DNA of 61,778 nucleotides from a virus (Duplodnaviria > Heunggongvirae > Uroviricota > Caudoviricetes), in the IMG/VR virus record IMGVR_UViG_2778261381_000005. One strand, written 5' to 3'. Under the pieces are notes generated by a model. The model was not told the origin of the DNA and did no database searches. It was given only the letters and a program-made list of their open reading frames with translations. This document shows positions 4,118 to 56,464 of this stretch, piece after piece. A program made the translations under genes and the position numbers. Positions within the stretch are counted from its first letter, which is position 1. Each line of letters starts with the position of its first letter.

Positions 4118-4131
4118 AAGGATAAGAAAAC

Positions 4132-7446: not shown

Positions 7447-7494
7447 CATGAACATGACTTCAGACCAGTCGTGGCGCGGCTTACAGCGATCGGG

Positions 7495-7560: not shown

Positions 7561-7646
7561 GTGAATAATTAAAACAGGCATTTACTACCTTCGGCGCACC
7601 TGGTGGGTTATCGTTGCCTCGGCTAACAATCACAGAAAAATGACAT

Positions 7647-8291: not shown

Positions 8292-8545
8292 CCCTCCAGA
8301 TCGTATATTGGCGTAGATAGAATCTACGCCCCCTCAAAATAGCTCTCATAGCGTTCTACAGTGATCCTGTCTTATTTTTAGTCATACAGACAAGCAAAGT
8401 TGCGCCACGATAAATAGGTATATACTTACTTATAAATTTTGTATATTAAGGCGCTCGTTTCATTCCTAACATACCGTTATGCATAGTTGTTTACCTCCTC
8501 ATTGCTCTTAGAATTTGTATCAAAATAACCACAAAGGAAAAATAC

Positions 8546-9631: not shown

Positions 9632-9864
9632 AGCAAAGTCGTTATGGGAGCTTTCGAGACTTTGCCATCACGATGAAAAGACTTGAACGAGGCCAGACGG
9701 TGATGTTTCACAAGCCCTACCCGCCACAAGGAAATCCCGTAGCGTTTTATCTTGGAAGGTTAACAAGAAAAGGCGTATTGAGGCGCAGATCCTTCCCGGC
9801 GCATACGGAGTTCAGATTGAAAGAAGGCCAAAAGCTAACACACGGTATCAGAGGTGTTATATGA
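9628..9864 (+). CDS. small basic protein (GTG start), tentative
   Basis: ORF bridging sbcD stop and sbcC start; ATGA overlap with sbcC start. Confidence 0.3.
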   Translation: MKQSRYGSFRDFAITMKRLERGQTVMFHKPYPPQGNPVAFYLGRLTRKGVLRRRSFPAHTEFRLKEGQKLTHGIRGVI

Positions 9865-11777: not shown

Positions 11778-12510
11778 ATTAAGCCGCTCGCAGTTTTTGC
11801 AGGTATTTGCAGTGATGCAGTCGATAAAACTGATCAATGGGCATACTTCCAATGGTGCGGCTCCACGTATTCTGTGGGGCAGCAACAATATTGACGGAGT
11901 ACAATTCGCCGCGTTGCTTGGTCTAATATCCGAGACGCCATTGATGCAAAGTTTGAAATCACTACCACCTGGATGTATTGCGCCGATCCTGATTAATCCT
12001 TTTGTTGAGGGGGGATATCTTCCCAACGTCGGGCCTGGGTTTATTGCATCCCATGAAACTGAAGATCTTAACATTAATAGCGAAGGGTTCTTTGGGGGAA
12101 TGGGTGCGCATCACTGTATGGCTTTCACGAACCTTATTCGACTTGCCAATAAGCGGGTGGATAGTTTGGCATCGCCAGGTGATGCTTTTACTGGTTTCCT
12201 TATCCAAAGGAGGGATAAAAAGTACAGTGCGGACAAACTACAGTTTGTTGGTAAGTATGGAGAAATGGTAGAAATCGAACTTCAGCTCCCTCATGTTTTA
12301 GCAAACGATAGTGCAGACAGTCGGAGGCTATTGGGCATCATGCGTCATTTCATAGCAAGTGGTGTTAAACATGCCGCAGATAAACGTGTCACGCAGGAAA
12401 ATGAGTATTCAGACTTTGCAAACTATCCCCAACCAACGTTGCAAACGGCAATAGTAGCCAATTCGTTGGAGGCGAGATTATTGGAAAACCCTATATGGGG
12501 AACATGGTAA
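11767..12510 (+). CDS. hypothetical protein
   Basis: ORF overlapping sbcC stop. Confidence 0.5.
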   Translation: MSFKLSRSQFLQVFAVMQSIKLINGHTSNGAAPRILWGSNNIDGVQFAALLGLISETPLMQSLKSLPPGCIAPILINPFVEGGYLPNVGPGFIASHETEDLNINSEGFFGGMGAHHCMAFTNLIRLANKRVDSLASPGDAFTGFLIQRRDKKYSADKLQFVGKYGEMVEIELQLPHVLANDSADSRRLLGIMRHFIASGVKHAADKRVTQENEYSDFANYPQPTLQTAIVANSLEARLLENPIWGTW

Positions 12511-27431: not shown

Positions 27432-28046
27432 ATGTTCGGGATGTCAATTACTCAATCAGATGGAAGTTTGTGGATGAGTCCTGAATTTACTCCGCAAAAT
27501 CTGATTAATAAAGGGACAATGTCTACATCTAAAGGTTCTGTTTTTCAAACATCAATCCCATCAAACAAATCATGCTTTTTCTTCATAAAAAGCAGCAATA
27601 AGGCGAACATGATGTTTATTCATGAACATAGTAACGGATACAATGCTCTCAGATTGCATCAGGTAAATGGTAGCCCCGGAACAATAACAGTTTATGCTTT
27701 TTCTGATATGGTGTTACCACATTCTGGCTATGGCATTGCCATGTATAACAGCGCAGGCGCAATGGTGTATCACGGTGAGATGATGCCCCTTGATGCAAAA
27801 CTTATCACTATTACTGACCCACAATTTACAATAGATATGGGGTATCCGTGCGCAGTAATGCCTGCTATGGTTGGGGTTTATAACTATAGACGAACCGATT
27901 ACGACAGACCTGTCTATGTAACTATGACCGGTGCAACTGGAAACCAAGTATATAACGGTCAATGGTATTCCGGTAATGTCACATGGGATATTAAGAAGAT
28001 TTATACAAACAAAATCCTGGTTATAAATACCTCAAAGTATGATTAG
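27432..28046 (+). CDS. hypothetical protein
   Basis: ATG 3 nt after previous stop; AT-rich codon usage. Confidence 0.45.
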   Translation: MFGMSITQSDGSLWMSPEFTPQNLINKGTMSTSKGSVFQTSIPSNKSCFFFIKSSNKANMMFIHEHSNGYNALRLHQVNGSPGTITVYAFSDMVLPHSGYGIAMYNSAGAMVYHGEMMPLDAKLITITDPQFTIDMGYPCAVMPAMVGVYNYRRTDYDRPVYVTMTGATGNQVYNGQWYSGNVTWDIKKIYTNKILVINTSKYD

Positions 28047-28149
28047 CAAATACCTTTATTTAAAGGATTGCCTGTTAATTTCTATTTAGCACCTTTTCAT
28101 TTTTGAAATAATTGCACTATTAAACAAATCTTTTCTTAATGGTGCAATT

Positions 28150-28626
28150 ATGAATACAGCTCTTTCCATCATCGACGATACCAACTCAAACACTGCTATC
28201 GATTATCGTCAGGAAATGAACGTCATCCACGAAATCGTAGCCGAGTGCGAGAAAGAGATCGCCTTCATGTATCAGGTTCACGACTTCGTTTATGGCGACG
28301 AACGCCACAACATGATTAATCGCCTGCTGCAACTGAACCATCGACCAGATGAAGAACGCTCACGTTTGAATCGAGCTTGGCTGGATAAAGTCGATCTGGA
28401 ATGGGTGAAACAGAATATTTGGGCCGAGTACTGGAGGAAGGTCACGGATATGACTAACGTTTTGCTGATCATGCCAGCTTCCCGTCGCGACGAGTGGCGT
28501 GAGCAGTTTATAGAGGGCAAACAGGAAGTCATCAAAACTGACAGAACCGGCTACCAGATGAAGGTTAAAGAGTTCGTTGGTGTACCTGAGTTCAAAGTGG
28601 ATACAAACATCCCTACGATGGTTTGA
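28150..28626 (+). CDS. hypothetical protein
   Basis: ORF only. Confidence 0.5.
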   Translation: MNTALSIIDDTNSNTAIDYRQEMNVIHEIVAECEKEIAFMYQVHDFVYGDERHNMINRLLQLNHRPDEERSRLNRAWLDKVDLEWVKQNIWAEYWRKVTDMTNVLLIMPASRRDEWREQFIEGKQEVIKTDRTGYQMKVKEFVGVPEFKVDTNIPTMV

Positions 28627-28684
28627 TCTGACAGCTATCTGCAATTTGCACAGATGTCTGCCAGATCTGGTTCAGATTAATACA

Positions 28685-31600
28685 CTATATCTGCCCACCT
28701 ACTCCTTTGAACTTTTCAATAAACGTGACGATTTTCTGGAAAACGGTCTGTTTTTTCGTTTTATATTGCGGGTTTAACGGACTAAGTTTTGGTAATGTCT
28801 CGTTTAATTCTGTGCCATTTTCGGTGGCGTATTCGCGTTTTAAAGACGTGCGAATATAGCGTTTCGCCGCCTCTTCATTGAGATTTTCTTCTTTTATCAA
28901 TGCTTCTGCTTCACGTTGCTGTTCGCGTTGAGCAAACGTAAAGAATGCCTCAATGATACTGGCTTTGTCTGGTAAATCATCCAGGTTCGTTTGCTGAATA
29001 AAATCGACCACCAGGCCCTCTTTCGCCCGGTTCCCCAGGCTTGAACGAATTAAGCGTTTGACCTCTTCGATCATTTCGCCCTTGCCTTTATTTTGTCTGT
29101 TGTGTTCGAAAATCAGTCCAAGGATATAATCCAGGTTTATTTCCTGAGACTTCAGCAAATCGACCTCAAAAACTACGTCATCCCAGTCAGTGGTTGATTT
29201 CTCTTTTTTCTCAGCTTCTTTCTCACGGCGCTGCCAGTCGCGAATATCGTTATAGGCAGAACGATAATCCTGAATCTTGCGTTCAGCAGGGAGACGAATT
29301 GTTTGCAATTCAGCGAACTTTTCATCATCCACATAATGTTCTGCTTTGAATTTTTCTACCGCAACAGGATCGCTAAGATCGATTTGTTGCAGGGCTTTCA
29401 GCGTGGCAAATTCATCATAGTTTTGCAGGATGTTCTCGGCACGCAGGTATTCACCAAACAGTTTTACGAAGTCTTTCTTCTCTTTTTCACTTTCAATACT
29501 GGCAGGGTCAGGGAACCGTTGTTCCAGTTCTGAAACTACTGCCATAAAGCCGCGTTTAGCTTCACCAGTGGCAGCATCTGTAAAGCCTTCCATATACTCA
29601 GCATAACTCTTTTCTAACACCACATTTTTAGTATTTTTATCACCAAACAGCGTTATGGCATCAATGGTTGAGCGTTCCAGATCCCGAAAAGTGACGATGT
29701 TACCGAAGGTTTTAGTAGCGTCATAAATGCGGTTGGTACGGGAGAATGCCTGCATCAGGCCGTGAAAACGCAAGTTTTTATCGACGAATAGCGTGTTCAA
29801 TGTTGGAGCGTCGAAGCCGGTTAAAAACATCCCAACGACAATTAACAGATCGATATCCTGATTTTTAACCCGTTGGGCTAAATCACGATAGTAGTTCTGA
29901 AAACCGTTACTGTCGGTGCTGAAGTTAGTTTTAAAATAGCTGTTATACTCACGAATTGCAGCGTCAAGAAACTCTTTAGCACTGCTGTCCATTGCGCTGG
30001 TATCAAAAGTTTCATCGGAAATTTCACCAATGGCATTTTGTTCTTCATTGGCGGCAAAGGAGAAGATTGTTGCAACACGCAGCGGTTTATAGGTAGCCGA
30101 TTTATTAGCTGCTTCCTCTTGTAACCGTTTAAACGTCGCGTAATAGGCTTTCGCGGCATCCACGCTACTCACTGCCAGCATGGCATTAAAGCCTTTGGAA
30201 CCTGGGAAAGTACGGTGGGTCTTCTGGCGGAAGTTATTCAGAATATATTGCGTAATTTCCTGTATACGCATGGGATGAAGAAATGCCTGCTGATTTTCAG
30301 CCGCACTCAGTTTTTTCTCGTCGGTTTCTGTCTCTAAAGATTTAAACTGTGGCCGCACATCGTTGTAGTCCACCTTGAATTTGAGCACTTTTTCATCACG
30401 AATCGCATCGGTAATTACATACGAATGCAATTCACGACCAAATACGCTGGCGGTCGTTTCTGAGCCTAAGGCGTTTTCCGGGAAAATAGGTGTGCCGGTA
30501 AAACCAAACTGATAATAGCGTTTGAATTTCTTCTTCAGGTTTTTCTGCGCTTCTCCAAACTGGCTGCGGTGACATTCATCAAATATAAACACCACTTGCT
30601 GATTGTATACAGGCAGGTCGCTTTCTGCTTTCATCAGGTTATTAAGTTTCTGAATAGTGGTGACGATAATTTTGTTATCGTCCTTATCCAGATTGCGTTT
30701 AAGACCTGCGGTATTTTCCGAGCCGTTGACGCTGTCTGGCGAAAAACGCTTATATTCATTCATGGTCTGGTAATCGAGGTCTTTCCTGTCGACCACGAAG
30801 AAGACTTTATCAATAAAGTCCAGCTCTGTTGCCAGACGCGCGGCTTTAAAGCTGGTGAGGGTTTTACCTGAACCGGTAGTGTGCCAGATATACCCACCGC
30901 TTTCCGGTTTTGACCAGTTCTTCGCTGTAAAGGAACTCTTAATTTTCCACAGAATGCGCTCAGTGGCGGCAATCTGGTACGGTCGCATCACCAGTAGCGT
31001 TTGGCTAACATCGAATACGCTGTAGTTCACTAAGACATTAAGCAGGGTATGTTTCTGGAAAAAGGTGGCGGTAAAGTCTTTGAGGTCTTTAATCAGCGTG
31101 TTGTCTGATTTCGCCCAATTCATGGTGAAGTCAAAACTGTTTTTATCGCGCTTTGTCGTGTTGGCAAAGTAACGGGTATCGGTGCCGTTGGAAATGACAA
31201 ACAGTTGCAGATACTTAAACAGAGAATTTTCGCTGTTAAAACTCTCTTTGCTGTAACGATGTATCTGGTTAAAGGCCTCACGAATCGCCACGCCGCGCTT
31301 TTTCAGTTCGATTTGTACCAGCGGTAAGCCATTAACCAGGATCGTGACGTCATAACGGTTAGCATGAGAACCCGTCTGTTCAAACTGCTGGATAATCTGC
31401 ACCTTGTTGCGCATGAGATTCTTTTTATCTATCAAATAGATGTTCTCAAGACGCTCGTCATCAAAAATAAAGTCGCAAATATAGTCGATATGGATTTTAC
31501 GGGTCTTATCCAGGATGCCATCGCTCGGGTTATCCAGATACTGCTCCGTGAAACGCCGCCATTCGCTGTCATTAAACACCACACCATTGAGGTTCTGAAG

Positions 31601-31801
31601 CTGTTCCCGAACGTTGGCCAGCATCGCCGACTGAGATTTTACGGAAATAAATTCATAGCCCTGATTCCGCAGATCCTGAATCAGTTCACGTTCCAGGTCC
31701 GATTCGCTCTGGTAGCTGTCGCCTGTTTGCTCGGCTTTGATGTACTTATCAAGAACGATAAAGTTATTGGATTCAGCAATGGTGTGTGTCTGATGAGTCA
31801 T
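28685..31801 (-). CDS. hsdR: type I restriction enzyme R subunit (EcoR124-like, type IC)
   Basis: 1038 aa; helicase motifs TGSGKT, DECHRS, SRTNR; N-terminus resembles EcoR124I HsdR as I recall it. Confidence 0.9.
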
Positions 31802-31922
31802 AGCGCATCCTTTGTGCCGTCTGGCAAGGGCCGGAAGGGCTTTAAGGGCGACTTCCGGCGTGTAAAAAATAGTCTCTATATAGACCGGATGTTAAGGTGA
31901 TCCGGTCGGTAGCAATGGTCAA

Positions 31923-33178
<1,256 letters not shown>

Positions 33179-33182
<4 letters not shown>

Positions 33183-34741
33183 GCCTGTACCTCGCTACCT
33201 TCAATCTCAGCAACAATCGCATCAATATCTTTACGCAACTGGTCGATTTTGCTGACCGTGGTTTTCAGCTCAGCATTCAGCTCAGCGATATCGATAATTT
33301 CGCGAGTATCTTTCGCTTCCACATAGCTGCTCACCGACAGGTTATAGTCATTCGCGACAACAGTCTCAAACGCAACAGATTTCGCCAGATGAGCAACATC
33401 TTCCTTGCTGGCAAATACCTGCATAATCTGTTCGATATGAGCATCGGTCAGAATGTTGTTGTTAGTCTCTTTTTTGAACAGTTCGCTGGCATCAATAAAC
33501 TGAACTTTGGTATCCGTTTTATGTTTAGACAGCACCAGAATATTGACGGCAATAGTGGTGCCAAAGAACAGATTCGGTGCCAGTGAAATCACGGTTTCGA
33601 CATAGTTATTGTCGACCAGATACTGACGGATTTTCTGCTCCGCGCCGCCACGGTAAAAAATGCCTGGGAAGCAGACAATCGCAGCGCGACCTTTGGCCGA
33701 AAGATAGTTCAGCGCATGTAATACAAACGCAAAGTCAGCTTTGGATTTGGGGGCCAGAACGCCAGCCGGGGCAAAACGTTCATCGTTAATCAGCGTCGGG
33801 TCATCGCTGCCAATCCATTTCACCGAATACGGCGGGTTAGAAACGATGGCATCAAACGGTTTTTCATCTCTGAAGTGCGGCTCAGTCAGTGTATTACCCA
33901 GCTTGATATCAAACTTGTCGTAGTTGATGTTGTGCAAAAACATGTTCATACGCGCCAGGTTATAGGTCGTATGGTTGATTTCCTGACCAAAAAAACCTTC
34001 TTCGATGATATGGTCATCAAACTGTTTTTTCGCCTGCAACAACAGCGAACCGGAGCCTGCTGCCGGGTCGTAGATTTTGTTAACGTGGGTCTGCCCGTGC
34101 ATAGCCAGTTGTGCAATCAGCTTAGAGACGTGCTGCGGTGTAAAGAACTCGCCGCCGGACTTACCGGCATTCGCCGCATAGTTAGAAATCAGGAACTCAT
34201 AGGCGTCACCGAACAGGTCAATCTGATGTTCATGGAAGTCACCAAGTTTTAGCCCTTCAACCCCTTTCAGAACCGCAGCCAAGCGGGCATTTTTATCTTT
34301 AACGGTGTTACCCAGGCGGTTACTGGTGGTATCGAAATCAGCAAACAAACCTTTGATGTCAGCTTCTGAAGGATAACCGTAAGCAGAACTTTCGATAGCA
34401 ACGAAGATGCTGTTTAAATCTGCATTCAGTCTGTCATTAGTATTTGCTTTCGCAGCTACGTTGCAGAAAAGCTGACTGGGGTAGATGAAGTAGCCTTTAG
34501 TTTTGATGGCATCGTCTTTAATGTCATCAGTAATTACGCTGTCATCCAGTTTCGCATAACAGATACTGTCATCACCGGCTTCAATATAACTGGAAAAATT
34601 TTCGCTGATAAAACGGTAAAAAAGCGCGCCCAAAACGTACTGCTTAAAATCCCATCCATCGACTGAACCCCTGACATCGTTAGCAATTTGCCAGATCTGG
34701 CGATGAAGCTCTGCACGTTGTTGAATACTTGTCATTTTCAT
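33179..34741 (-). CDS. hsdM: type I restriction-modification methyltransferase subunit
   Basis: 520 aa; N6-adenine MTase motifs DPAAGSGS and NPPY; operon order hsdM-hsdS-hsdR. Confidence 0.9.
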
Positions 34742-35093
34742 CCACTTATTTCAGGTTTAAGTAATTGGATGTGATTCTACAGCAACTTGGATGCTTTAGC
34801 AGTTCGGACATTAGGTAACGAATGACCTAATTAGAGCTTTTTGGAAAAGCGGTATTGTCGGTGCGATTTTAGCTATGTCTGGGTGTGCGATGGTGCAATA
34901 CAATGACGGTGAAAAGGTTAGCATCCAGTTCGATGGCTGGTATTGGCTTGGATAGCCTGCCAAAAAACGCAGATAAAGCCTGTCAGCAATACGGAAAGTC
35001 TAAAGCTGTATATCTGCATAGCGCGAACGCTAACCCTCATCTTGCGCCTGGTACGGGTGTTCAGAATACCATCTGGAAATGTGAGCCTTAAAC

Positions 35094-35345
35094 ATGAGCA
35101 ACTGGAACATAGCAGCCAAAAGCCAGGAAGAAAGGAATAAAGTTAACGTTGACCTGGCTGCCAGGGGGGTTGCCTACAAAGAGCGATTGAACATACCCGT
35201 CATAGCGGAACAGGTAGCCCGTGAGCAACCTGAGAACCTGCGCACCTATTTCATGGAACGGCTACGGCACTACCGGCAGTTAAGCCTCCTGCTGCCAAAA
35301 GGAAACGATCCGGTATATCAGAAAGAAGATATAGCCAAAAAATAA
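35094..35345 (+). CDS. hypothetical protein
   Basis: ORF only; weak RBS. Confidence 0.3.
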
Positions 35346-35405
35346 CGCGCCACCAGACGAGCGCAAAGCATCGCGCTATTGCACACTTCAAGCATCTTTA
35401 ATGTA

Positions 35406-35425
35406 TACTGTATGGATAAACAGTA
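35406..35425 (+). promoter_or_regulatory. LexA (SOS) box
   Basis: TACTGTATGGATAAACAGTA fits CTGT-N8-ACAG; 18 nt upstream of umuD'-like ATG. Confidence 0.7.
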
Positions 35426-35443
35426 CTCTGAGGTGAAAACGCT

Positions 35444-35833
35444 ATGGGCTTCCCTTCTCCTGCGGCGGATTATGCTGAGAGCCGTATTTCTCTTGATCAG
35501 CAGATAATTAGACATCCTTCAGCGACCTACTTCATGAGGGCAGCTGATAGTCATCATCGTGAGGGAATATTACAGGGTGCATTGCTGGTGGTCGATTCCT
35601 CACTTACCCCGGTTGATGGTTCTCTGCTTGTATGCGCTCTGGATGGGGAATATCGCGTAAAAAGATACCGGAAGTACCCACGTCAGCATCTGGAGGATTT
35701 AAGAACCGGTAAGAAGGAAGCATTGCCAAAGGATGACGATGGATGCACGGGCAGCAATGCCGTGTTTGGTGTGATCACTCACATTATCAACGACGCAAGA
35801 AGTGGCGAGTTTGATGATTGTCCCGTGATGTAG
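35444..35833 (+). CDS. UmuD'-like protein (S24 LexA-family fold lacking the N-terminal arm)
   Basis: Starts M-GFPSPAADY, aligning from Gly25 of E. coli UmuD (recalled); SATYF, VFGVITHII conserved; in-frame stop 13 nt upstream. Confidence 0.6.
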   Translation: MGFPSPAADYAESRISLDQQIIRHPSATYFMRAADSHHREGILQGALLVVDSSLTPVDGSLLVCALDGEYRVKRYRKYPRQHLEDLRTGKKEALPKDDDGCTGSNAVFGVITHIINDARSGEFDDCPVM

Positions 35834-35845
35834 GAGAACTGATTA

Positions 35846-35869
35846 GGCGGTGCAATGCACCGCCTTTTA
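35846..35869 (+). terminator. rho-independent terminator
   Basis: GGCGGTGCA atg CACCGCC followed by TTTT. Confidence 0.6.
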
Positions 35870-36970
35870 TCACACTGCGCGGAATGCGATTTCGCCAGGT
35901 ATTACTTCACCTTGCCAATACATTTGGGCGGCAACGCGATCTGCGAGGTCACGATAAATAGCCGTAAATTCGCTATCTGGACGACTAATAACGGTTGGTG
36001 TTCCGTTATCCAGATCTTCACGAAGAGAGATATGAAGTGGCATTTGGCCTAACAACTGCGTGTTGTATTTCTCGGCCAGTTTCTGTGCGCCACCGGTGCC
36101 AAAAATTGGCTCGTGATGACCGCAGTTACTGCAAATATGCACACTCATGTTTTCGACGATACCCAGTACCGGCACTTCGACTTTTTCGAACATCACAATG
36201 CCTTTCTTCGCATCGATCAGCGCGATGTCTTGCGGCGTAGTTACCACAACCGCACCAGTTACAGGAATGTTCTGCGCCAGCGTCAACTGAATATCACCAG
36301 TGCCCGGCGGCATATCGAGAACGAGATAGTCCAGATCAGGCCATAGAGTTTCCTGCAACATCTGCATCAGCGCCTTGCTGGCCATCGGTCCACGCCACAC
36401 CATTGCATTGTCGTCGGTGACCAGATAACCAATAGAGTTGGTTGCCAGGCCATGAGACATGATAGGTGCCATGTGAGTACCGTCAGGTGAGGTTGGACGT
36501 TGGTTTTCCGCGCCCAGCATGGTTGGAATTGATGGACCATAGATATCGGCATCCAAAATACCAACTTTCGCACCTTCAGCAGCCAACGCCAGTGCCAGGT
36601 TTACCGCCGTGGAGGATTTACCCACGCCGCCCTTGCCTGAGCTGACGGCGATAATGTTCTTAACGCCATTAATGCCTGGTTGGTTTTTGACGCGCTTAAG
36701 CGTGGCAATGTTGTACGACAGCTTCCAGTCAATAGCCTTTGCGCCAGTGATACGGAGCAGATCACCACTACATTGCTCTTTCAGGTCTTCAAAAGGCTTA
36801 TTCCACACGAAAGGCATGATTAGTTCGACATGCAGTGTGTCATCCATCAACGCAACATGGTGTAACGCTTTAAGCGTAGTCAGGTTGTGTTTCAGGGTTG
36901 GGTGCTGAAAATTAGCCAGCGTACCGGCTACCATTGCTCTCAGGGCATCCGGCGATTTGGACTCGCTCAT
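35870..36970 (-). CDS. mrp: Mrp/ApbC Fe-S cluster carrier ATPase
   Basis: P-loop SGKGGVGKS, C-terminal CSNCGH; divergent from metG as in E. coli. Confidence 0.9.
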   Translation of the reverse strand: MSESKSPDALRAMVAGTLANFQHPTLKHNLTTLKALHHVALMDDTLHVELIMPFVWNKPFEDLKEQCSGDLLRITGAKAIDWKLSYNIATLKRVKNQPGINGVKNIIAVSSGKGGVGKSSTAVNLALALAAEGAKVGILDADIYGPSIPTMLGAENQRPTSPDGTHMAPIMSHGLATNSIGYLVTDDNAMVWRGPMASKALMQMLQETLWPDLDYLVLDMPPGTGDIQLTLAQNIPVTGAVVVTTPQDIALIDAKKGIVMFEKVEVPVLGIVENMSVHICSNCGHHEPIFGTGGAQKLAEKYNTQLLGQMPLHISLREDLDNGTPTVISRPDSEFTAIYRDLADRVAAQMYWQGEVIPGEIAFRAV

Positions 36971-37127
36971 CCCGTCTCCTTTATTTTAATTTGCGCAATT
37001 GTCGCCTTGTAGTGTACTCCAGCTACGACATTTAATCATTTATGAGAAATGCTGTTATCACATGGCAGACATAAGGCCATTTTGTTACTATCAAGCCCCT
37101 TTTCACTACAAAGAAGTAATGCCTACT

Positions 37128-39161
37128 ATGACCCAAGTCGCGAAGAAAATTCTGGTGACGTGCGCGCTGCCGTACGCTAACGGCTCAATCCACCTCGGCC
37201 ATATGCTGGAGCACATCCAGGCTGATGTCTGGGTTCGTTACCAGCGAATGCGCGGCCACGAGGTTAATTTCATCTGTGCCGACGATGCCCACGGTACGCC
37301 GATCATGCTGAAAGCACAGCAGCTTGGTATCACACCGGAGCAGATGATTGGCGAAATGAGTCAGGAACACCAGACTGATTTCGCAGGCTTTAACATCAGC
37401 TATGACAACTATCACTCGACGCACAGCGAAGAGAACCGCCAGCTGTCTGAGCTTATCTATACTCGCCTGAAAGAGAACGGTTTTATTAAAAACCGCACTA
37501 TCTCTCAGTTGTACGACCCGGAAAAAGGCATGTTCCTGCCGGATCGTTTTGTGAAAGGCACCTGCCCGAAATGTAAAGCGCCAGATCAATACGGCGATAA
37601 CTGTGAAGTATGCGGTGCGACTTACAGCCCGACTGAACTGATTGAACCGAAATCGGTGGTTTCTGGCGCTACCCCGGTAATGCGTGATTCCGAACACTTC
37701 TTCTTTGATCTGCCTTCTTTCAGCGAAATGTTGCAGGCATGGACCCGCAGCGGCGCGTTGCAGGAGCAGGTGGCGAACAAAATGCAGGAATGGTTTGAAT
37801 CCGGCCTGCAACAGTGGGATATCTCCCGAGATGCGCCTTACTTCGGTTTTGAAATTCCGAACGCGCCGGGCAAATATTTCTACGTCTGGCTGGACGCGCC
37901 GATTGGCTACATGGGTTCCTTCAAGAATCTGTGCGACAAGCGCGGCGATACCACCAGCTTCGATGAATACTGGAAGAAAGACTCCACCGCCGAGCTGTAC
38001 CACTTCATCGGTAAAGATATTGTTTACTTCCACAGCCTGTTCTGGCCTGCCATGCTGGAAGGCAGCAACTTCCGCAAGCCGACCAACCTGTTTGTTCACG
38101 GCTATGTGACGGTGAACGGCGCGAAGATGTCCAAGTCTCGCGGCACCTTTATTAAAGCCAGCACCTGGCTGAATCATTTTGACGCCGACAGCCTGCGTTA
38201 CTACTACACTGCGAAACTCTCTTCGCGCATTGATGATATCGATCTCAACCTGGAGGATTTCGTTCAGCGCGTGAATGCCGATATCGTGAACAAAGTGGTT
38301 AACCTGGCCTCCCGTAATGCAGGCTTTATCAACAAGCGTTTTGACGGCGTGCTGGCAAGCGAACTGGCTGACCCGCAACTGTACAAAACCTTTACTGATG
38401 CCGCTGAAGTGATTGGCGAAGCATGGGAAAGCCGCGAATTTGGTAAAGCTATCCGTGAAATCATGGCATTGGCTGACCTGGCTAACCGCTATGTCGATGA
38501 ACAGGCTCCGTGGGTGGTGGCGAAGCAGGAAGGACGCGATGCCGATCTGCAGGCGATTTGCTCTATGGGCATTAACCTGTTCCGCGTGCTGATGACGTAC
38601 CTGAAGCCGGTACTGCCGAAACTGACTGAACGTGCAGAAGCATTCCTGAATACAGAACTGACCTGGGATGGTATCCAGCAACCGCTGCTGGCGCACAAAG
38701 TTAATCCGTTCAAAGCACTGTATAACCGCATCGACATGAAGCAGGTTGAAGCACTGGTGGAAGCCTCTAAAGAAGAAGTGAAAGCCACTGCCGCGCCAGT
38801 TACTGGCCCGCTGGCAGACGATCCGATTCAGGAAACCATCACCTTTGATGACTTCGCCAAAGTTGACCTGCGCGTGGCGCTGATTGAAAACGCGGAGTTT
38901 GTTGAAGGCTCTGACAAACTGCTGCGTCTGACGCTGGATCTAGGTGGTGAAAAACGCAATGTCTTCTCAGGCATCCGTTCTGCTTATCCAGACCCACAGG
39001 CACTGATTGGTCGTCACACCATTATGGTGGCTAACCTGGCTCCGCGTAAAATGCGCTTCGGTATCTCCGAAGGTATGGTGATGGCTGCTGGCCCCGGTGG
39101 GAAAGATATCTTCCTGTTAAGCCCGGATGCTGGTGCTAAACCTGGCCACCAGGTTAAGTAA
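37128..39161 (+). CDS. metG: methionyl-tRNA synthetase
   Basis: HLGHMLEH (HIGH), KMSKS, zinc knuckle CPKC...CEVCG; ORF-track start at 36999 rejected in favour of ATG 37128 (MTQVAKKIL). Confidence 0.95.
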
Positions 39162-39183
39162 TTAAACAACCTCTCTTCGCAAT

Positions 39184-39208
39184 GCCCGGCAACACGCCGG
39201 GCATTTTC
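39184..39208 (+). terminator. rho-independent terminator of metG
   Basis: GCCCGGC aacac GCCGGGC followed by ATTTTCAT. Confidence 0.6.
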
Positions 39209-39293
39209 ATATAGACACAATCCCTTCTGATTTACACAGTACCTAAAACAATTTGTTTTCTGCCTTTTGTTGATGGAGATAATAAACCACATA

Positions 39294-39312
39294 AGAAAAC
39301 AACTTGTTTTGG
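39294..39312 (+). promoter_or_regulatory. motif 1 palindrome (second copy at 39243-39262)
   Basis: aagaaaacaacttgttttgg; first motif 1 after the host-type block. Confidence 0.45.
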
Positions 39313-39313
39313 A

Positions 39314-39622
39314 GTGGTTGAAATGTTGAACATTACCCAAGCCTACCAGGTGGCATTGATCAGCTCATCTCATACATCAGAGGAAGATGCTCGCCGATTC
39401 ATGATCGCAAGCAATGAGCTGGATTGGGTTTCGCAAATTGACGGCGGTTGTATTGTCCACGCCGGGTTACAGGATGATGTCTGGAAAGACGACTTGCGTC
39501 GATATGGTATATCCGAAGGCGCGATTGCTAACATTCAGAAAGTACTTGATGTAGGCTTTGACTCTGTACATTTTGATTGTGGTGCGCCGGTCGTTGAAGG
39601 GCTTGAGTGCTGGAACTGGTAA
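39314..39622 (+). CDS. hypothetical protein
   Basis: RBS ggag then ATG directly after motif 1. Confidence 0.5.
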   Translation: MVEMLNITQAYQVALISSSHTSEEDARRFMIASNELDWVSQIDGGCIVHAGLQDDVWKDDLRRYGISEGAIANIQKVLDVGFDSVHFDCGAPVVEGLECWNW

Positions 39623-39749
39623 ATCTGCAAACAGATTCAAACCGTTGATAATGGCGGTCACAATTTGATTCTTTTCTATAAGAATCCGTTGATCGCCACT
39701 ACTCCCCTTCCATACCCGCAATCACATCCTTAAATATCAATAAGTTATA

Positions 39750-40560
39750 GTTGTTTATACAATCAAGAAAACAACTGAATAACAGATCAACGAAACATCA
39801 ACGCTTTCATCCGATTTGGTCTAAAAAATTGACGTTTTCACACATCACTGCTTATACCCGTAATTCTACGCAGCAGACAGCGCCACAGCGTCCAATTTTC
39901 ACCACAGACGACCCAACACACTACCAACAAAAACACACGCTCAAAATCGTTCCCGTTGCGTTACACAACCATATAAACAACTTATTTTCAGGCATAACAA
40001 AACAACTAAATAACACACATGCCATTCCCCAAAACAACCAACCTCTTTATGGCAGGCTACCGAAAAGACCCACCTCTTCTCCCCAGGCTACCGGACAACC
40101 AACCTAACTTTCACAGGCAATCCGAAAACATTCATACGCGCGATACCCACGACACGCCATTACCCAAACAGCGAAGAAACACCTGAACCGCTGAAACCCC
40201 AACGAAGCCTGTAACCGCAAGGTTTCTCTCAATCCCAAAAGACACGAAACATAACAATCACGGGAAACGCCATTACCCAATACACGAATAACTACAAAAG
40301 CCTTTCACACACTCCAGACAAACAACTCAAACACAATAACGAAAGCAATCGCCCACCTGCCATTACTCCATACACGGAGAAGAACAATCACCAAAACGAC
40401 GAGAACACCCCATAGAAGAACCACCGCAAAACGAACGAAACCATTTACACCGACAGAGAGAACAACACGCCCAATTCACCAACAGAAATAGTCGCCGTAT
40501 AGAACATTCTGGAAGGAGTGAGCATTAACGCCTATAGAGAGGTTGAGACAGATAAAACAC
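39750..40560. repeat. non-coding region with strong C+A over G+T strand skew and dispersed repeats
   Basis: Repeats ACGCCATTACCCAA at 40154, 40269, 40355; CAGGCTACCG at 40040-40110; ORF-track ORFs here are low-complexity. Confidence 0.6.
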
Positions 40561-40679
40561 AACATGTATAGCGAAGAAGCCAGGTATGTATAAGTGGGGA
40601 GGGAAGGAGGGGTGTCGCCTCCTTTTTCGTATTTATTCAACTCCTGATTTTATCCCCCGTAACACCCCTACGGTCAGCC

Positions 40680-40860
40680 TTCGGTCCATACAGGGAAAAG
40701 GTTGCATCCCGCTACAGAAACGGCTGGGTTGCCTTCGGGGAACGGCTGGAGGTTTTCAGGGAAACGGTCGAGTTGCCTGTGTGGGTTTCGGGAAAAGGCT
40801 CGATGCCGGTTCAGGAACGGCGGCGTACCGGTATAGCGTGAGGGAGAGTTGCGGCTACCC
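40680..40860. repeat. degenerate tandem repeats with GGAAACGG core (about 6 copies, 22-30 bp period)
   Basis: ggaaaaggttgc, agaaacggctgg, ggaacggctgg, ggaaacggtcgag, ggaaaaggctcg, gaacggcggc. Confidence 0.55.
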
Positions 40861-41154
40861 ACCTGTAATGTGCGGGAAGAAGAGAGGCGCTCACGTGCAG
40901 GCGAACTTACTTACCGCTGGATTCCCTCTGAATGCCCAGCTACAGCGTAATTGTGCCAGACAGCCAACGGGTCACAATCGATTTCAGTAGGTTTTCGGGG
41001 AGATGATTATTCTGCCCACCAGCCACCTTCGGCCACTAAATCAGAATAATGTAAAAAGTGTTCTCGGTACTGAACCTGAAAACTCACTGCCAAAACCACA
41101 TTCACCGGAATAAAATCCTTTTTCGCCTGTGCGTTATTGCGATAATAACACCAT

Positions 41155-41176
41155 CAAGAAAACATGTTGTTTAAGG
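41155..41176 (+). promoter_or_regulatory. motif 1 palindrome with extended upstream box CGATAATnACACCAnCAAGAAAAC
   Basis: caagaaaacatgttgtttaagg; extended box shared with 43265 and 43755 copies. Confidence 0.45.
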
Positions 41177-41184
41177 ATTGCTTT

Positions 41185-41514
41185 ATGTTTGCACATATCG
41201 ACATCAACCAAATCAAGAAATTGACTCAAAAAGAGTTTGACCAGTTCTATGAGCTGGAAGGTTGGTCTTCCACTCTGATCAATTCGCGGTGGGTGCTTGA
41301 GCTGATGACTCGTGATGATGCACCTGCTTTGATGATTTGCGACATGGGTGAAGATGCTGACTTTATGGATATGAGCGAATTTTGTGTGGACACATACAAC
41401 CGCAGCCAGAAGTACTACTTCACATGCGATAGCGAAAATGACGTGATTTCTAAGGTCTATCTTCACCTCGTCCAGCATTGGGACGTTCAGGAGTTTCTTG
41501 AGGTATTCGCGTAA
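41185..41514 (+). CDS. hypothetical protein
   Basis: RBS aagga; ORF-track ATG at 41164 lies inside motif 1. Confidence 0.5.
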   Translation: MFAHIDINQIKKLTQKEFDQFYELEGWSSTLINSRWVLELMTRDDAPALMICDMGEDADFMDMSEFCVDTYNRSQKYYFTCDSENDVISKVYLHLVQHWDVQEFLEVFA

Positions 41515-52974: not shown

Positions 52975-53607
52975 ATGACGGTCGAAAAAGACGAGGTAAA
53001 AACTCGCCTGACACCAGCGGAGTGGGCCGAAGCTGAAGCCAAATGGACGTCAGGCGAATATACACTCTCAAAGCTGGAGGAAGAGTACGGCATTCGTCGT
53101 GAAACACTCTCCAGACATTTCAAAAAGCGAGGATTAGAGAAAGGCGCGGACTCTGTTGGGAAGATGGTTCGTGAGTCTCTTAAATCTGACGCAGAGCTTC
53201 GCGCTAAAGCCCGTGCGGAAAAGATAGAAGAACGTCGTACACGTTATGACGGCTGGGCGTATGCGTTGGGGCAGATGGTGATGGTCGAAGTCACTACGGC
53301 CAAACGTGAGGGTAAGCCTTTAGGGGCGATTGAGGATTCTCTCAAGAGCTTACAGAGAGCCAGTAATACCCTTGCAAAATGCTTTGAAGTTTCGTCCAAA
53401 GCATTGGGCATGGATCATGCGGAAAATGACGAGGAAGAAATTCCGAACCTGGTATTTGGTGAGCTTACGCCTTCCCAGGTGGCGAAATTACGTCAGGAAG
53501 ACGACGAGCCTGAAATCATCGATGACGAATTGCTTGAGACGTTGGAAGAAGAAGCTCTAAGCGAATTTGATGCGACAGATGATGGAAGTGAAGGGGAGGA
53601 CGAATAA
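52975..53607 (+). CDS. terminase small subunit, tentative
   Basis: Directly upstream of terL; acidic C-terminal tail. Confidence 0.5.
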   Translation: MTVEKDEVKTRLTPAEWAEAEAKWTSGEYTLSKLEEEYGIRRETLSRHFKKRGLEKGADSVGKMVRESLKSDAELRAKARAEKIEERRTRYDGWAYALGQMVMVEVTTAKREGKPLGAIEDSLKSLQRASNTLAKCFEVSSKALGMDHAENDEEEIPNLVFGELTPSQVAKLRQEDDEPEIIDDELLETLEEEALSEFDATDDGSEGEDE

Positions 53608-54863
53608 TGGCAATCCCGTCCTCGCTCAGTCTTGTGCAACTGCATTCTGGACAGATGAAAGTCTTCCAGTCTCCGCATCGATTTAAAGTTGTTTGTGCTG
53701 GTCGACGCTGGGGAAAATCCCGGTTGTCGATCTCCACTATTATTCGTGCGGCGGCAAAGGAAAAAAAGCAAAGAGTCTGGTATGTCGCTCCTACTTACCA
53801 GATGGCTCGCCAGATTTTGTGGGACGATCTACAGGAAGTTCTGCCTCGTAAGTGGGTTAGGAAAAAGAACGACACCACGATGACAATCGTGTTGAAGAAC
53901 GGTTCGGAGATCGCCCTCAAAGGTGCTGATAAGCCTGACACTCTGCGCGGCGTAGCGTTGCATTTTGTAGTGCTTGATGAATTTCAGGATATGAAGGCTG
54001 ACACCTGGTACAAGGTGTTACGACCTACTCTTTCATCGACACGCGGCGGTGCACTGATCATTGGTACGCCAAAAGGCTTCTCGGAATTTCACAAACTGTG
54101 GACTATAGGCCAGAACGTAGAGCTGCAAAGAAAGGGACAGTGGAAGAGCTGGCAGTTTGTAACTGCCGATTCTCCGTTTGTACCTACGGCGGAAATTGAA
54201 GCTGCTAAGAACGATATGGACCCGAAATCGTTCGCTCAGGAGTACCTGGCGAGCTTTGAGAACATGTCCGGGCGCGTTTACTACCCGTTCGATCGTAACG
54301 TGCATGTAAAACCGCTTCAGTTCAACCCTCGGTTGCCTATATGGGTAGGGCAGGACTTCAACATTGACCCGATGTCTTCAGTAATTTTGCAACCTCAGCC
54401 AAATGGTGAGCTATGGGCAATTGATGAATTGGTGCTCTTTTCCTCTAACACGGCAGAGGTTTGTGATGAGCTTGAGAGACGCTTCTGGCGCTGGAAATCA
54501 CAGATAACGGTATTTCCAGATCCGGCAGGTGCTTATCGCCAACATGCTCGCGGGGAGTCTGACGTCGACATATTCAAAGAGAAGGGATTCTTACGTGTCG
54601 ATTATTCGAAAAAGCACCCGCCAATTGCGGATCGTGTTAATGCTGTTAACCGAATGCTGATGACCGCATCTGGAGATATCCGGCTGTATATCGATCCGAA
54701 GTGCAAGCATTTGATTGATTCACTGGAAAAAGTCATCTACAAGCCTGGAACACGAGATATGGATAAGACAGGTGGCATTGAGCATAGTGCAGACGCATTG
54801 GGCTATCCAGTACATCGTAGGTATCCAGTCAAAAACCGTGTTATTCTTGGTGGTTCTCGATAG
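53607..54863 (+). CDS. terL: terminase large subunit
   Basis: Walker A-like CAGRRWGKS, Walker B VVLDEFQDM; followed by portal gene. Confidence 0.8.
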   Translation: MAIPSSLSLVQLHSGQMKVFQSPHRFKVVCAGRRWGKSRLSISTIIRAAAKEKKQRVWYVAPTYQMARQILWDDLQEVLPRKWVRKKNDTTMTIVLKNGSEIALKGADKPDTLRGVALHFVVLDEFQDMKADTWYKVLRPTLSSTRGGALIIGTPKGFSEFHKLWTIGQNVELQRKGQWKSWQFVTADSPFVPTAEIEAAKNDMDPKSFAQEYLASFENMSGRVYYPFDRNVHVKPLQFNPRLPIWVGQDFNIDPMSSVILQPQPNGELWAIDELVLFSSNTAEVCDELERRFWRWKSQITVFPDPAGAYRQHARGESDVDIFKEKGFLRVDYSKKHPPIADRVNAVNRMLMTASGDIRLYIDPKCKHLIDSLEKVIYKPGTRDMDKTGGIEHSADALGYPVHRRYPVKNRVILGGSR

Positions 54864-54882
54864 GTAAGTAATTATCTAAGGT
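54859..54882. promoter_or_regulatory. motif 2 palindrome between terL and portal
   Basis: cgataggtaagtaattatctaagg. Confidence 0.4.
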
Positions 54883-54889
54883 TATTCAA

Positions 54890-56464
54890 ATGGAATTGAA
54901 CGACAAACAAATTAAGGATCTGGTGGCGCGACGCCACCCGGAATACGAAAAGAAAAAAGAACATTGGGACTTCCTCGCCAGCACTTACGCTGGCGGGCGT
55001 GGTTGGTTTACAGACAATATCTTTCGTTACTTTAAAGAGGGAGATCAGGAGTTTAAGGAGCGAGTTGAACGTGCTTATCGCTTCAACCACACTCGTGAGG
55101 TGGTAAACCTCATCAACAAATATCTCTTTAAAGAAGACATTCATAGAAATATCGAAGAGGCACCAGAGCAGATCCGCAATTTCTGGAAACGTGCGACTCG
55201 CCAGAATGCCTCTATTGACTCATTTATGGCCGCTATTGATTTGCAGTCGTCTATTTACGGTCGCATATGGGTTGTTGTCGATAGCACGATGAGTGGTGAT
55301 GTTGAGTCAGTAGCTGACGAGAAAAAGAAAGATGCTCGCGCCTACGCCTACTGGATTTCACCTCAGCAAATGCTGGATGTGGCATGGGACGACGACGGGA
55401 ATATGTTGTGGGCGTTAATTGTGGAAGTCGCTCGTGATGACGCAGATCCTTTTACTTCTACAGGTCAGGAATACCAACGTTATCGTCTGTGGACACAAAA
55501 CGAGTGGTATCTGTTCCGTGAGGAAGTGAAGAAGGGCGCTGGTGGAGCAGGTCGCCGTCAGGCAAAAGTTATTTTAGAGGATAGCGGTGAGCATAATCTC
55601 GGCGTAGTTCCTGTGTTTCCTGTTGATTGTATTGGAGAAAGTGAATCACCGTATTTCAGCCCATCGTTGATCGATGATATCGCTTATCTTGATCGTGCGG
55701 TTGCAAACTATCTGTCAAACCTTGATGCCATTATTCAGGATCAGACATTTAGCCAGTTGGCTATACCGGTACAGTCGCTTTTACCTGGTGATGAAAACCA
55801 CACTAAAGTGCTTGAAATGGGCACAAAGCGAGTCTTCACCTACGATTCTGAAGGTGGAAACCAGCCGTTTTATCTGTCACCAGACCCGAAACAAGCTCAG
55901 ATGATCATCACTACGATTAAGACGGTGATTAACGAAATCTACCATTCAGTTGGTGTAGCTGGTGAGCGAACGAAGCAGGACAACGCACAGGGAATCGATA
56001 ATTCATCTGGTGCCGCAAAAATGTATGACTTCCAGCGTGTAAATAGCTTGCTTGTCACAAAAGCAGAGCGTCTGGAAAGGGCTGAACGCCAAATCATGCT
56101 ACTGGTTGCGAAATGGATGGGGGTAGATCTGGACGAAGACCACTCTTTAATTGCATATCCAGAAAGTTTCGATATTCGTGGCCTTACTGATGAATTTTCT
56201 GTTGCCGAGAAACTGTCATTACTTCAGGCACCGGACTCTGTACGTCGTCACCAGATGGAAATGCTTATTGAGAAGATTTTCCCGAACATTACTGAGGCGA
56301 TGAAAAAGGAATTTGATAAAGATCTCTTGAATTTTCCTCCAAAAAATGATCTAAATACCCTTGAAAATAAGTCAGTACTTACTTATGATCGTGGTGCAGC
56401 CCAAGAAAGCGGGCAAGATCAACCCCGAGGGAATGGGGACTCATCTACTCAAGAGAACGAGTGA
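54890..56464 (+). CDS. portal protein
   Basis: 524 aa between terL and scaffold gene. Confidence 0.7.
   Translation: MELNDKQIKDLVARRHPEYEKKKEHWDFLASTYAGGRGWFTDNIFRYFKEGDQEFKERVERAYRFNHTREVVNLINKYLFKEDIHRNIEEAPEQIRNFWKRATRQNASIDSFMAAIDLQSSIYGRIWVVVDSTMSGDVESVADEKKKDARAYAYWISPQQMLDVAWDDDGNMLWALIVEVARDDADPFTSTGQEYQRYRLWTQNEWYLFREEVKKGAGGAGRRQAKVILEDSGEHNLGVVPVFPVDCIGESESPYFSPSLIDDIAYLDRAVANYLSNLDAIIQDQTFSQLAIPVQSLLPGDENHTKVLEMGTKRVFTYDSEGGNQPFYLSPDPKQAQMIITTIKTVINEIYHSVGVAGERTKQDNAQGIDNSSGAAKMYDFQRVNSLLVTKAERLERAERQIMLLVAKWMGVDLDEDHSLIAYPESFDIRGLTDEFSVAEKLSLLQAPDSVRRHQMEMLIEKIFPNITEAMKKEFDKDLLNFPPKNDLNTLENKSVLTYDRGAAQESGQDQPRGNGDSSTQENE

Follow-up and report, generated by a model that had tools for sequence, protein, structure and literature searches.

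A probable accessory-gene hotspot in an SSU5-like Escherichia phage-plasmid carries a type IC restriction-modification operon, P1-type SOS genes and a host-derived apbC-metG pair

The 61,778-nucleotide stretch of DNA analyzed here (hereafter the window; IMG/VR virus record IMGVR_UViG_2778261381_000005, Caudoviricetes) contains a run of bacterial-type genes inside a phage backbone, namely a type IC restriction-modification operon (hsdM, hsdS and hsdR), a remnant of the P1-type gene upf followed by hot, the UmuD'-like gene humD, and the divergent pair apbC (mrp) and metG, which respectively encode an Fe-S cluster carrier ATPase and a methionyl-tRNA synthetase (MetRS). We consider it probable that the window derives from a siphovirus phage-plasmid in the Escherichia lineage of the SSU5-like group, with Cyrano/pLF82, pECOH89 and p09EL50 as relatives, and that the region 28624-39241 is an accessory-gene recombination hotspot, which extends from a DUF4942 methylase gene to the next palindrome-controlled backbone gene; this level of confidence applies to the structural and evolutionary account as a whole. 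Where the original prediction had seen a single 10.5-kb block, sequence comparisons resolve at least four modules of different age and history: hsdMSR, the upf remnant with hot, humD, and apbC-metG. These modules would have arrived separately in the hotspot. By the same comparisons the hsd part appears recent and swappable, and the humD-apbC-metG part old and fixed in the Escherichia lineage.

The 12 kb at 28000-40000 are 99.9% identical to the Escherichia coli plasmid p788309_2 (CP091393.1), at least 42 plasmids of the PLSDB database, each of about 110 kb, cover 80% or more of this segment, and its best phage match is Escherichia phage Cyrano, which is the phage-plasmid pLF82 (OV696614) of strain LF82 and a relative of SSU5. 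The left flank of the hotspot carries genes for an intein-bearing RecA-like protein, RepA with iterons, SbcCD-like proteins, NrdA/NrdB, ThyA, Dam and RNase H, and the right flank those for a helicase, the large terminase, the portal and structural proteins. Membership in the SSU5-like group is indicated by blocks collinear with SSU5 (JQ965645, the Salmonella phage that is the prototype of the group) on both sides and by the presence of replication and packaging genes. SSU5 shares with the window a collinear DNA-metabolism and structural backbone and the same hotspot limits, with a methylase gene on the left and a palindrome region on the right. It differs in lacking hsd, hot, humD, apbC and metG, in a backbone identity of only 68-86%, and in its hotspot content, which comprises the rest of the methylase gene, eaa, a RelA/SpoT-like gene and small open reading frames (ORFs). 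Cyrano, p09EL50, pECOH89 and p788309_2, on the other hand, have a backbone 97-99.9% identical to that of the window on both sides, and the same humD-apbC-metG triad, terminator and downstream palindromes; Cyrano and p09EL50 depart from the window in possessing a full-length DUF4942 methylase gene and ead/ea22-type genes where it has hsdMSR, the upf remnant and hot. The particles of Cyrano are those of a siphovirus, ciprofloxacin induces the phage, and its copy number is about 5.5 per cell (PMC9928086). The extrachromosomal state and the virions were demonstrated for this 97-98% identical phage by quantitative PCR and electron microscopy (PMC9928086). The terminase-portal segment is far more widespread, being found in 758 plasmids from Klebsiella, Escherichia, Enterobacter, Yersinia and Salmonella.

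The limits and the modular make-up of the hotspot emerge from comparisons with SSU5, Cyrano, p09EL50, pMTY18780-3 and the Klebsiella phage vB_KpnS_p4727, all of which are collinear on both sides and different in between. Homology to SSU5 stops at 28620 and resumes at 39242, and that to Cyrano stops at 28623; the bacterial-type block had thus been correctly recognized, and its limits are real breakpoints. The P1-like phage vB_EcoM-673R5 has only 28685-34840, the hsd operon, in common with the window (95-97% identity, except in the target-recognition domains of hsdS), P1-like plasmids only 34832-35347, the upf remnant and hot (89%), and E. coli chromosomes only 35874-39162. Within the group, Cyrano, p09EL50 and pMTY18780-3 possess humD-apbC-metG and lack hsd and hot, in place of which they carry the full methylase gene and a varied set of ead/ea22, DUF551 or toprim genes. 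vB_KpnS_p4727 (PQ492289.1) shows an 80-83% identical type IC hsd operon in the same hotspot, after a truncated methylase gene, and has no humD-apbC-metG, but instead an uncharacterised 625-amino-acid ORF (10256-12133, minus strand) within 4111-12133. The triad lies at the right end of the hotspot and is fixed in the Escherichia lineage. From such comparisons we infer the direction in which modules flowed between elements.

The rightmost module combines two genes that are divergent neighbors in all enterobacterial chromosomes sampled. The product of apbC (35870-36970, minus strand; 366 amino acids; Pfam ParA/NUBPL, 2e-102) belongs to the ApbC/Mrp family, as seen from the motif SSGKGGVGKSS, with the deviant Walker A sequence GKGGVGKS, and from the C-terminal CSNCGH, which supplies the CxxC signature. 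That of metG (37128-39161, plus strand; 677 amino acids; Pfam tRNA-synt_1g, 5e-166, Anticodon_3 and tRNA_bind) is a full-length MetRS of the E. coli dimeric type, with HLGH as its version of HIGH, KMSKS, a zinc knuckle (CPKC...CEVC) and a C-terminal tRNA-binding domain. No tRNA genes were found in the window, and metG accordingly has no tRNA-Met partner there. Only the last 47 or so nucleotides of the intergenic region (36971-37127) before metG resemble the Escherichia chromosome; in sliding windows this region is 55-64% identical to E. coli, its best partial matches come from Citrobacter (77-79%), and a consensus scan of it detected no strong sigma-70 consensus and no clear promoter. Downstream of metG lies an intrinsic terminator (39181-39205, plus strand; 10-bp GC stem followed by UUUU, -19.1 kcal/mol, z-score -5.65), which is not homologous to the sequence downstream of chromosomal metG, the chromosomal homology ending at 39162-39169.

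The two genes have diverged from their chromosomal counterparts to very different degrees. Relative to strain K-12, metG is 94.0% identical in nucleotide and 98.7% in amino acid sequence, with a synonymous divergence (dS) of 0.30 and a ratio of nonsynonymous to synonymous divergence (dN/dS) of 0.02; the corresponding values for apbC are 82.4%, 94.8%, about 1.5 and 0.02, and E. coli is no closer to it than Citrobacter werkmanii (82.6%). The description of MetG and Mrp as near-native enterobacterial enzymes therefore held at the protein level and concealed a large synonymous divergence, which implies that the pair was not acquired recently from the present host. The step in identity is sharp and falls exactly at the start of metG in sliding windows. 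The GC content at third codon positions (GC3) of apbC is 0.53, as against 0.62 in the K-12 copy and 0.60-0.66 on chromosomes, and that of metG 0.614, as against 0.625 in K-12; given that the backbone genes show 0.43-0.52, apbC has moved toward backbone composition and metG has not. On chromosomes the ratio of apbC to metG dS is about 2 (E. coli versus Escherichia sp. E1V33), so that rates particular to each gene do not account for the fivefold difference found in the comparison with the phage-plasmid copies.

Comparison of five phage-plasmid copies, which underlie the analyses of selection and the trees, showed that the ApbC protein is identical in four of them despite dS values of up to 0.12; the fifth, from pMTY18780-3, reaches an apbC dS of 0.18 with dN/dS of at most 0.02. 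Among the same five, dS in metG goes as high as 0.29 and dN/dS is 0.01-0.02, the identity being distributed in blocks. Overall dN/dS is 0.00-0.03 in both genes, a substitution pattern that indicates strong purifying selection on both host-derived genes. In neighbor-joining trees, displayed without support values, apbC from the phage-plasmids is sister to Escherichia on a long branch, and metG from the same elements falls within Escherichia. A single lineage-fixed change, V442I, sets MetG apart from Escherichia chromosomes, and ApbC has 17 fixed substitutions, mostly in residues 1-86, and a new start codon. The terminase-portal segment at 95% identity or more was recovered in 186 plasmids and apbC-metG at the same threshold in 191, all from Escherichia or Shigella (the latter set comprising E. 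coli, Shigella sonnei and E. albertii); the two counts come from separate searches and are approximate. None of 572 more distant SSU5-like plasmids has such an apbC-metG copy. The pair thus marks the Escherichia lineage, and the Salmonella, Klebsiella, Enterobacter and Yersinia relatives are without it.

Two database entries deserve mention beside this distribution. Plasmid pTIC (MF554642.1) is 100% identical to the window at 28500-28800, 34700-35460 and 53607-56464, and its annotation lists a shortened apbC followed by a 'DNA replication protein' in place of metG, which may point to an insertion or rearrangement disrupting the pair. The record CP170191.1, labelled as the chromosome of Enterobacter hormaechei strain B56, gives the same apbC-metG alignment as K-12 BW25113 (88.353% over 3297 nucleotides) and looks mislabelled, or is E. 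coli.

Evidence for exchange between the phage-plasmid and the chromosome was obtained in p09EL50 (NC_018651.1). Here a 427-bp metG tract (10465-10891, equivalent to 37334-37760 of the window) is 99-100% identical to K-12, as against 93-95% for the other phage-plasmid copies over the same interval (permutation P = 0.0055). The tract is at least 99% identical in 3267 E. coli records, with only 219 matching places on plasmids; its match to more than 3000 E. coli chromosomes implies that a chromosomal allele was copied into a phage-plasmid metG at least once. Based on these observations we propose that a forerunner of the Escherichia lineage would have captured the divergent pair once, in a segment bounded by the two stop codons, and that purifying selection would have kept it since. 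In place, apbC would have aged, with saturated synonymous divergence and a GC3 drifting toward that of the AT-richer backbone, and metG would have stayed near the host allele through gene conversion, at intervals, with the resident chromosome as donor. It may instead have been replaced wholesale at a later time, or its donor may lie among Escherichia species outside the sample.

As for what the pair might do, transcript data for Cyrano in LF82 list its apbC, annotated as a septum-site protein, as a moron expressed 9-fold above the prophage background, and place its MetRS gene near the detection floor in all five conditions. A benefit in the form of an extra Fe-S carrier in the lysogen, together with extra Met-tRNA charging when the element amplifies or enters a new cell, can be suggested only tentatively. 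That the Escherichia lineage domesticated a host metG along with apbC, in continuing homologous exchange with the chromosome, and thereby acquired a functional auxiliary translation gene in a temperate phage, is a possibility we regard as doubtful. A drug- or toxin-resistant variant of MetRS was also considered and is unlikely, V442I being the only change fixed relative to Escherichia chromosomes.

Several points weigh against the account given above. The chromosomal comparison lists 80 loci, which do not include chromosomes of E. albertii, E. fergusonii or E. marmotae, and a donor at the distance of these species could explain the divergence of metG without conversion. The single capture is deduced from five phage-plasmid copies and from trees printed without bootstrap values, and the long apbC branch could place the origin of apbC outside Escherichia. 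With respect to function, metG of Cyrano is almost silent in every lysogenic condition, which leaves extra charging capacity as a suggestion drawn from sequence conservation alone; this conservation could in part stem from repeated import of functional chromosomal sequence instead of selection on the plasmid copy. Cross-mapping between the plasmid and chromosomal paralogues in the LF82 RNA-seq data is likewise possible.

Among the alternatives, separate origins of the two genes survive best, although we regard them as unlikely. According to this proposal, apbC and the intergenic region derive from an enterobacterium other than Escherichia, an Escherichia chromosome later supplied metG, either as a new acquisition or as a replacement for the entire gene, and the low divergence of metG owes nothing to continuing patchy conversion. 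The sharp step at the metG start, the equal distance of apbC from E. coli and C. werkmanii, the Citrobacter-like best matches of the intergenic region, and the absence of any 150-bp metG window below about 88% identity to E. coli would all be expected under such a scenario. However, the conserved divergent arrangement on enterobacterial chromosomes makes one capture more parsimonious, the phage-plasmid apbC clade still groups with Escherichia, if on a long branch, and the GC3 shift represents a directional change that inflates the apparent distance of apbC. Moreover, the conversion tract is directly visible in p09EL50, and homologous recombination that replaces a whole gene also counts as conversion, so that this alternative overlaps with the explanation by single capture and subsequent conversion.

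A further alternative, which we hold to be decidedly unlikely, is that apbC-metG is neutral baggage lying between useful genes and kept intact by recurrent repair from the chromosome. It would account for the scant transcription of metG in Cyrano lysogens, for the redundancy of a plasmid copy in hosts that retain the chromosomal one in every E. coli genome, and for the single lineage-specific change in MetG. It does not sit well with apbC, which at 82% identity is too diverged for chromosomal repair and yet encodes an identical protein in four of the five copies, shows dN/dS of no more than 0.02 in all comparisons, and is the gene expressed well above the prophage background in LF82; nor does it fit the persistence of the pair in about 190 plasmids next to a region whose content changes freely.

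Acquisition of the whole block in one recent event, as a 10.5-kb mobile island carrying hsd, humD, apbC and metG from an enterobacterial chromosome or plasmid, is very improbable. Such an island would be compatible with a block that is contiguous, free of the backbone palindrome and substituted for a contiguous SSU5 segment. It is contradicted by the relatives that carry humD-apbC-metG without hsd or hot, by vB_KpnS_p4727 with hsd and without the triad, by the restriction of each set of outside homologs to its own segment, and by the differing identities of the nearest outside relatives of the modules (95-97%, 89%, 87% and 82-94%). In keeping with the original prediction, a flanking-repeat search and a Pfam scan of the ORFs in the block uncovered no transposase or direct repeat. 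There was no integrase either; direct or inverted repeats of the kind that flank a transposon, integron or integrative island were not found at the module borders, none of the scanned ORFs matched a transposase family, and all non-nested ORFs of at least 80 amino acids are accounted for by the genes described here.

The left junction (28500-28800) is intact in 48 public plasmids and the hsdM/hot junction (34700-35460) in 67, the carriers being complete plasmids that were sequenced independently and came from humans, pigs, poultry, dogs and water. A search of 5426 complete E. coli genomes gave 226 plasmid-borne copies of apbC-metG besides the chromosomal one. The copy in the window is no more than 88-90% identical to any of the 5430 places matched on E. 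coli chromosomes, which shows that it is not contaminating host DNA. Thus, although metG and apbC are unusual housekeeping genes to find inside a phage backbone, and credible MetRS occur in only a handful of 50,697 phage records, several apparent matches being mislabelled bacterial contigs, the alternative raised in the original prediction, of an assembly or cloning chimera in which a chromosomal or plasmid fragment was misjoined into a phage contig, has a negligible probability and is refuted for the lineage by identical junctions in independent complete plasmids (48, 67 and about 190) from a wide range of hosts and countries, by the distance from all chromosomal copies, and by the same humD-apbC-metG genes in the virion-producing phage Cyrano. 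The other option offered there, genuine phage-plasmid cargo consisting of a defence island and host genes, is borne out by this recurrence.

The hsd operon runs antisense to the backbone. Its genes are hsdM (33179-34741, minus strand; 520 amino acids; Pfam N6_Mtase and HsdM_N), coding for the N6-adenine methylase subunit, hsdS (31923-33182, minus strand; 419 amino acids; Pfam Methylase_S) for the specificity subunit, and hsdR (28685-31801, minus strand; 1038 amino acids; Pfam EcoR124_C, T1R_D3-like, SWI2_SNF2 and HSDR_N) for the restriction and translocase subunit. The first two overlap by 4 nucleotides and a 121-bp gap precedes hsdR, the three-gene layout of type IC systems. HsdR aligns with EcoR124I HsdR (PDB 2W00) over residues 1-1038 with 2274 bits, and HsdM scores 1151 bits against EcoR124II HsdM (7BST_D) versus 68 bits against the EcoKI methylase subunit; both thus group with EcoR124I/II and not with the IA (EcoKI), IB or ID types. 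Tandem TAEL repeats of HsdS set the length of the spacer in the DNA target. The central region of the HsdS protein contains three of them, encoded by a 12-nucleotide repeat at 32593-32628. Against EcoR124II HsdS (7BST_A) it aligns only in the conserved N-terminal, central and C-terminal regions, both target-recognition domains being unlike those of EcoR124I/II. Against the copy in the P1-like phage these domains show no homology over 32058-32509 or 32715-33128. The operon accordingly has all the features by which a type IC system is recognized in sequence, and its DNA target is predicted to be new and different from those of EcoR124I/II. In comparison with these systems of plasmid R124, HsdR and HsdM are essentially identical in length and sequence, and the gene order, with overlapping hsdM-hsdS and a gap before hsdR, and the conserved HsdS regions with TAEL repeats are shared; the differences lie in both target-recognition domains, in the three TAEL repeats versus two in the solved chain, and in the location on a phage-plasmid versus a conjugative plasmid.

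The homology with vB_EcoM-673R5 begins exactly at the hsdR stop codon, and in this phage the hsd operon adjoins phd-doc. The annotation of the P1 record states that its phd-doc region is 98% identical to the sequence upstream of the type IC EcoDXXI hsd locus. This likeness, taken together with the adjacency in vB_EcoM-673R5, suggests that the hsd/hot/humD neighborhood was assembled among P1-like elements, from which it may have passed to the SSU5-like element by recombination in or near humD. Illegitimate recombination would have brought hsd in, at the cost of the 3' two-thirds of the methylase gene, and the operon would circulate between P1-like phages, SSU5-like phage-plasmids and IncF plasmids. 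Its products presumably methylate the element and the host chromosome and cut unmodified incoming DNA.

Between hsdM and apbC lie genes of P1 type. A segment at 34832-35395 (plus strand), absent from Cyrano, contains a 5'-truncated upf-like ORF (34885-35091), which matches positions 22-74 of the 74 of phrog_7757, and hot (35094-35345), which encodes a homolog of the theta subunit of DNA polymerase III (Pfam DNA_pol3_theta, 1e-31). It is followed by a LexA (SOS) box, TACTGTATGGATAAACAGTA, at 35406-35425 (plus strand), 18 nucleotides upstream of humD; this is the single perfect LexA match in the window, where 0.03 are expected, and it occupies the same position as the annotated LexA site of P1 humD. 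The gene humD (35444-35833, plus strand) encodes a 129-amino-acid S24 protein of the pre-processed UmuD' kind, since Pfam Peptidase_S24 begins at residue 1 and the N-terminus MGFPSPAADY corresponds to the UmuD' processing point. It is 86-88% identical in nucleotide sequence to humD of P1, P7, D6 and SJ46, and is present also in Cyrano, p09EL50 and pMTY18780-3. In LF82 the transcript of the Cyrano homolog rises from a log2 value of about 7 in LB medium to about 12 inside macrophages, or about 30-fold. Behind its LexA box, HumD would be made during the SOS response, which also induces the phage; the P1 record describes HumD as complementing UmuD'. Compared with the hot-lxr-humD arrangement of P1, the window shows 86-89% nucleotide identity in hot and humD and a LexA box about 20 nucleotides before humD, and differs in having no lxr, in the hsd junction that cuts into upf upstream, and in apbC, instead of phd-doc, as the gene after humD. 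A hairpin between the convergent humD and apbC (35845-35865; -18.9 kcal/mol, z-score -4.6, a 9-bp GC-rich stem and a T-run) is likely a bidirectional terminator. The terminators that had been proposed for the block thus find support in folded hairpins both here and after metG; a sigma-70 and terminator consensus scan of 28000-39800 returned no more sites than shuffled sequences.

At the left edge of the hotspot the ORF at 28150-28626 (plus strand) had been taken for the last phage ORF. It is actually the N-terminal 158 amino acids of a DUF4942 DNA methyltransferase of about 550 residues, matching 1-150 of the 548 positions of phrog_6263, and the left junction consequently lies inside a gene. 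Full-length versions of 561 amino acids are encoded in SSU5 (SSU5_095) and Cyrano (CYRAN_90). The 58-bp gap reported between this ORF and the block is confirmed, with the ORF ending at 28626 and the hsdR stop codon at 28685. The junction itself is a 61-bp filler (28624-28684, minus strand) that forms a strong hairpin without a U-tract downstream of hsdR (-23.6 kcal/mol, z-score -3.9), and is not shared by the hsd copies of P1-like phages and IncF plasmids, whose homology starts at 28685. The right edge (39245-39310, plus strand) bears two copies of the palindrome AAACAANTTGTTT, at 39246 and 39297, within a segment of SSU5 homology (39242-39309). As to gene content, hsdR, hsdS, hsdM, humD, apbC and metG had all been correctly named, as verified from translations and Pfam matches, and hot and the truncated upf ORF had been overlooked. 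A comparison of GC content, proposed as a check on the block, gave 0.460 for the block and 0.459 for its flanks; bulk composition thus does not mark it, with the low value of hsdS (0.357) and the high one of metG (0.525) cancelling out.

The palindrome AAACAANTTGTTT is probably the binding site of a phage regulator. It has 14 sites in the window (4103, 15541, 25764, 26493, 39246, 39297, 39975, 41160, 41644, 42546, 43296, 43781, 52897 and 52922) against 0.62 expected, none between 26506 and 39245, mostly a few tens of bases upstream of plus-strand backbone genes, and at the right edge of the hotspot SSU5 has it too. The palindrome corresponds to the first of two palindromes noted earlier in the flanks, a copy of which had been placed about 40 bp past the block; the site at 39246 is indeed 36 bp beyond the block end assumed then (39210). 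The second palindrome was not identified with confidence. ATAAGTA-NN-TACTTAT at 2958 and 17814, whose 6-nucleotide core TAAGTA-NN-TACTTA recurs at 42047, is no more than a candidate; ATTGCAC...GTGCAAT (28111-28148) was rejected as occurring once, and TAATTGCAC as not enriched.

Elsewhere in the window, the RecA-like protein of 779 amino acids (575-2914, plus strand) is split by an intein with a LAGLIDADG homing endonuclease domain (Pfam RecA, Intein_splicing and LAGLIDADG_3). Seven copies of ACCGCTGACAG(CATAC) at 5699-7437 flank the Rep3-type repA (6231-7445, minus strand) and are probably the iterons of a plasmid origin. Just to the right of the block, 40001-41000 is unusual in composition (AT skew 0.287, GC skew -0.12) and three loosely similar 31-nucleotide units occur at 40029-40120; a search of 39600-41300 detected no tandem repeats, and one of 28000-41500 no match to an Rfam family. 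In p788309_2, the closest relative, positions 1-1732 contain ISEcp1-blaCTX-M-15 just upstream of rnhA. The window appears to be without this insertion, as it is collinear there with Cyrano, which has no such insert.

Virus-encoded aminoacyl-tRNA synthetases are known mainly from giant viruses and from jumbo or mega-phages. Among the 50,697 phage records, credible MetRS are confined to these E. coli elements, one Microcystis jumbo phage and two uncultured megaphages; the enzymes of Microcystis phage MaAM05 (274 kb) and of the megaphages (about 635 kb) are only 24-29% identical. The window resembles such viruses in carrying a complete aminoacyl-tRNA synthetase and is unlike them in that the enzyme is a 98.7% identical copy of that of the current host, resides on a 110-kb temperate phage-plasmid and is paired with its chromosomal neighbor apbC, with a host-converted tract in the relative p09EL50. 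Two further records were not counted as instances of convergent capture: the MetRS of Acinetobacter phage MD-2021a (CAKLQF020000011.1) sits in a bacterial chromosomal contig, with dcd, pfs, mrp, emrB and dcyD around metG, which is probably a mislabelled entry of the phage collection, and that of Pseudomonas phage Y5 comes from an unannotated record flagged UNVERIFIED. Every gene discussed here is already annotated in many GenBank records, the Cyrano record naming the MetRS, and the kinds are all familiar: a defence system in the variable region of a phage-plasmid, P1-type SOS genes and host-derived auxiliary genes. Full-text literature searches brought up no publication that connects SSU5-like elements with metG, MetRS or apbC. 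The lineage-wide retention of the pair, the contrasting fates of apbC and metG, and the conversion tract are modest new observations.

These elements are not rare: 226 plasmid places among 5426 complete E. coli genomes correspond to carriage by about 4%, and some relatives carry blaCTX-M-15. The region shows in two ways how they put together their cargo: at a fixed hotspot, phage-plasmid families and conjugative plasmids exchange defence systems, and selection has maintained a pair of host housekeeping genes throughout an entire lineage. A second metG that recombines with the chromosome bears on typing and on the evolution of an essential gene, on read mapping and variant calling at metG in carrier strains, and on why a temperate phage would keep a tRNA synthetase. 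Variants of metG have been linked to antibiotic tolerance and persistence (PMC11004401). If the domestication considered above were true, the element would be a mobile second locus for an essential translation gene, which could shuttle metG alleles between strains, and it could provide MetRS and an Fe-S carrier in the lytic phase, or whenever Met-tRNA charging is shut off by a system of the host or of a competitor.

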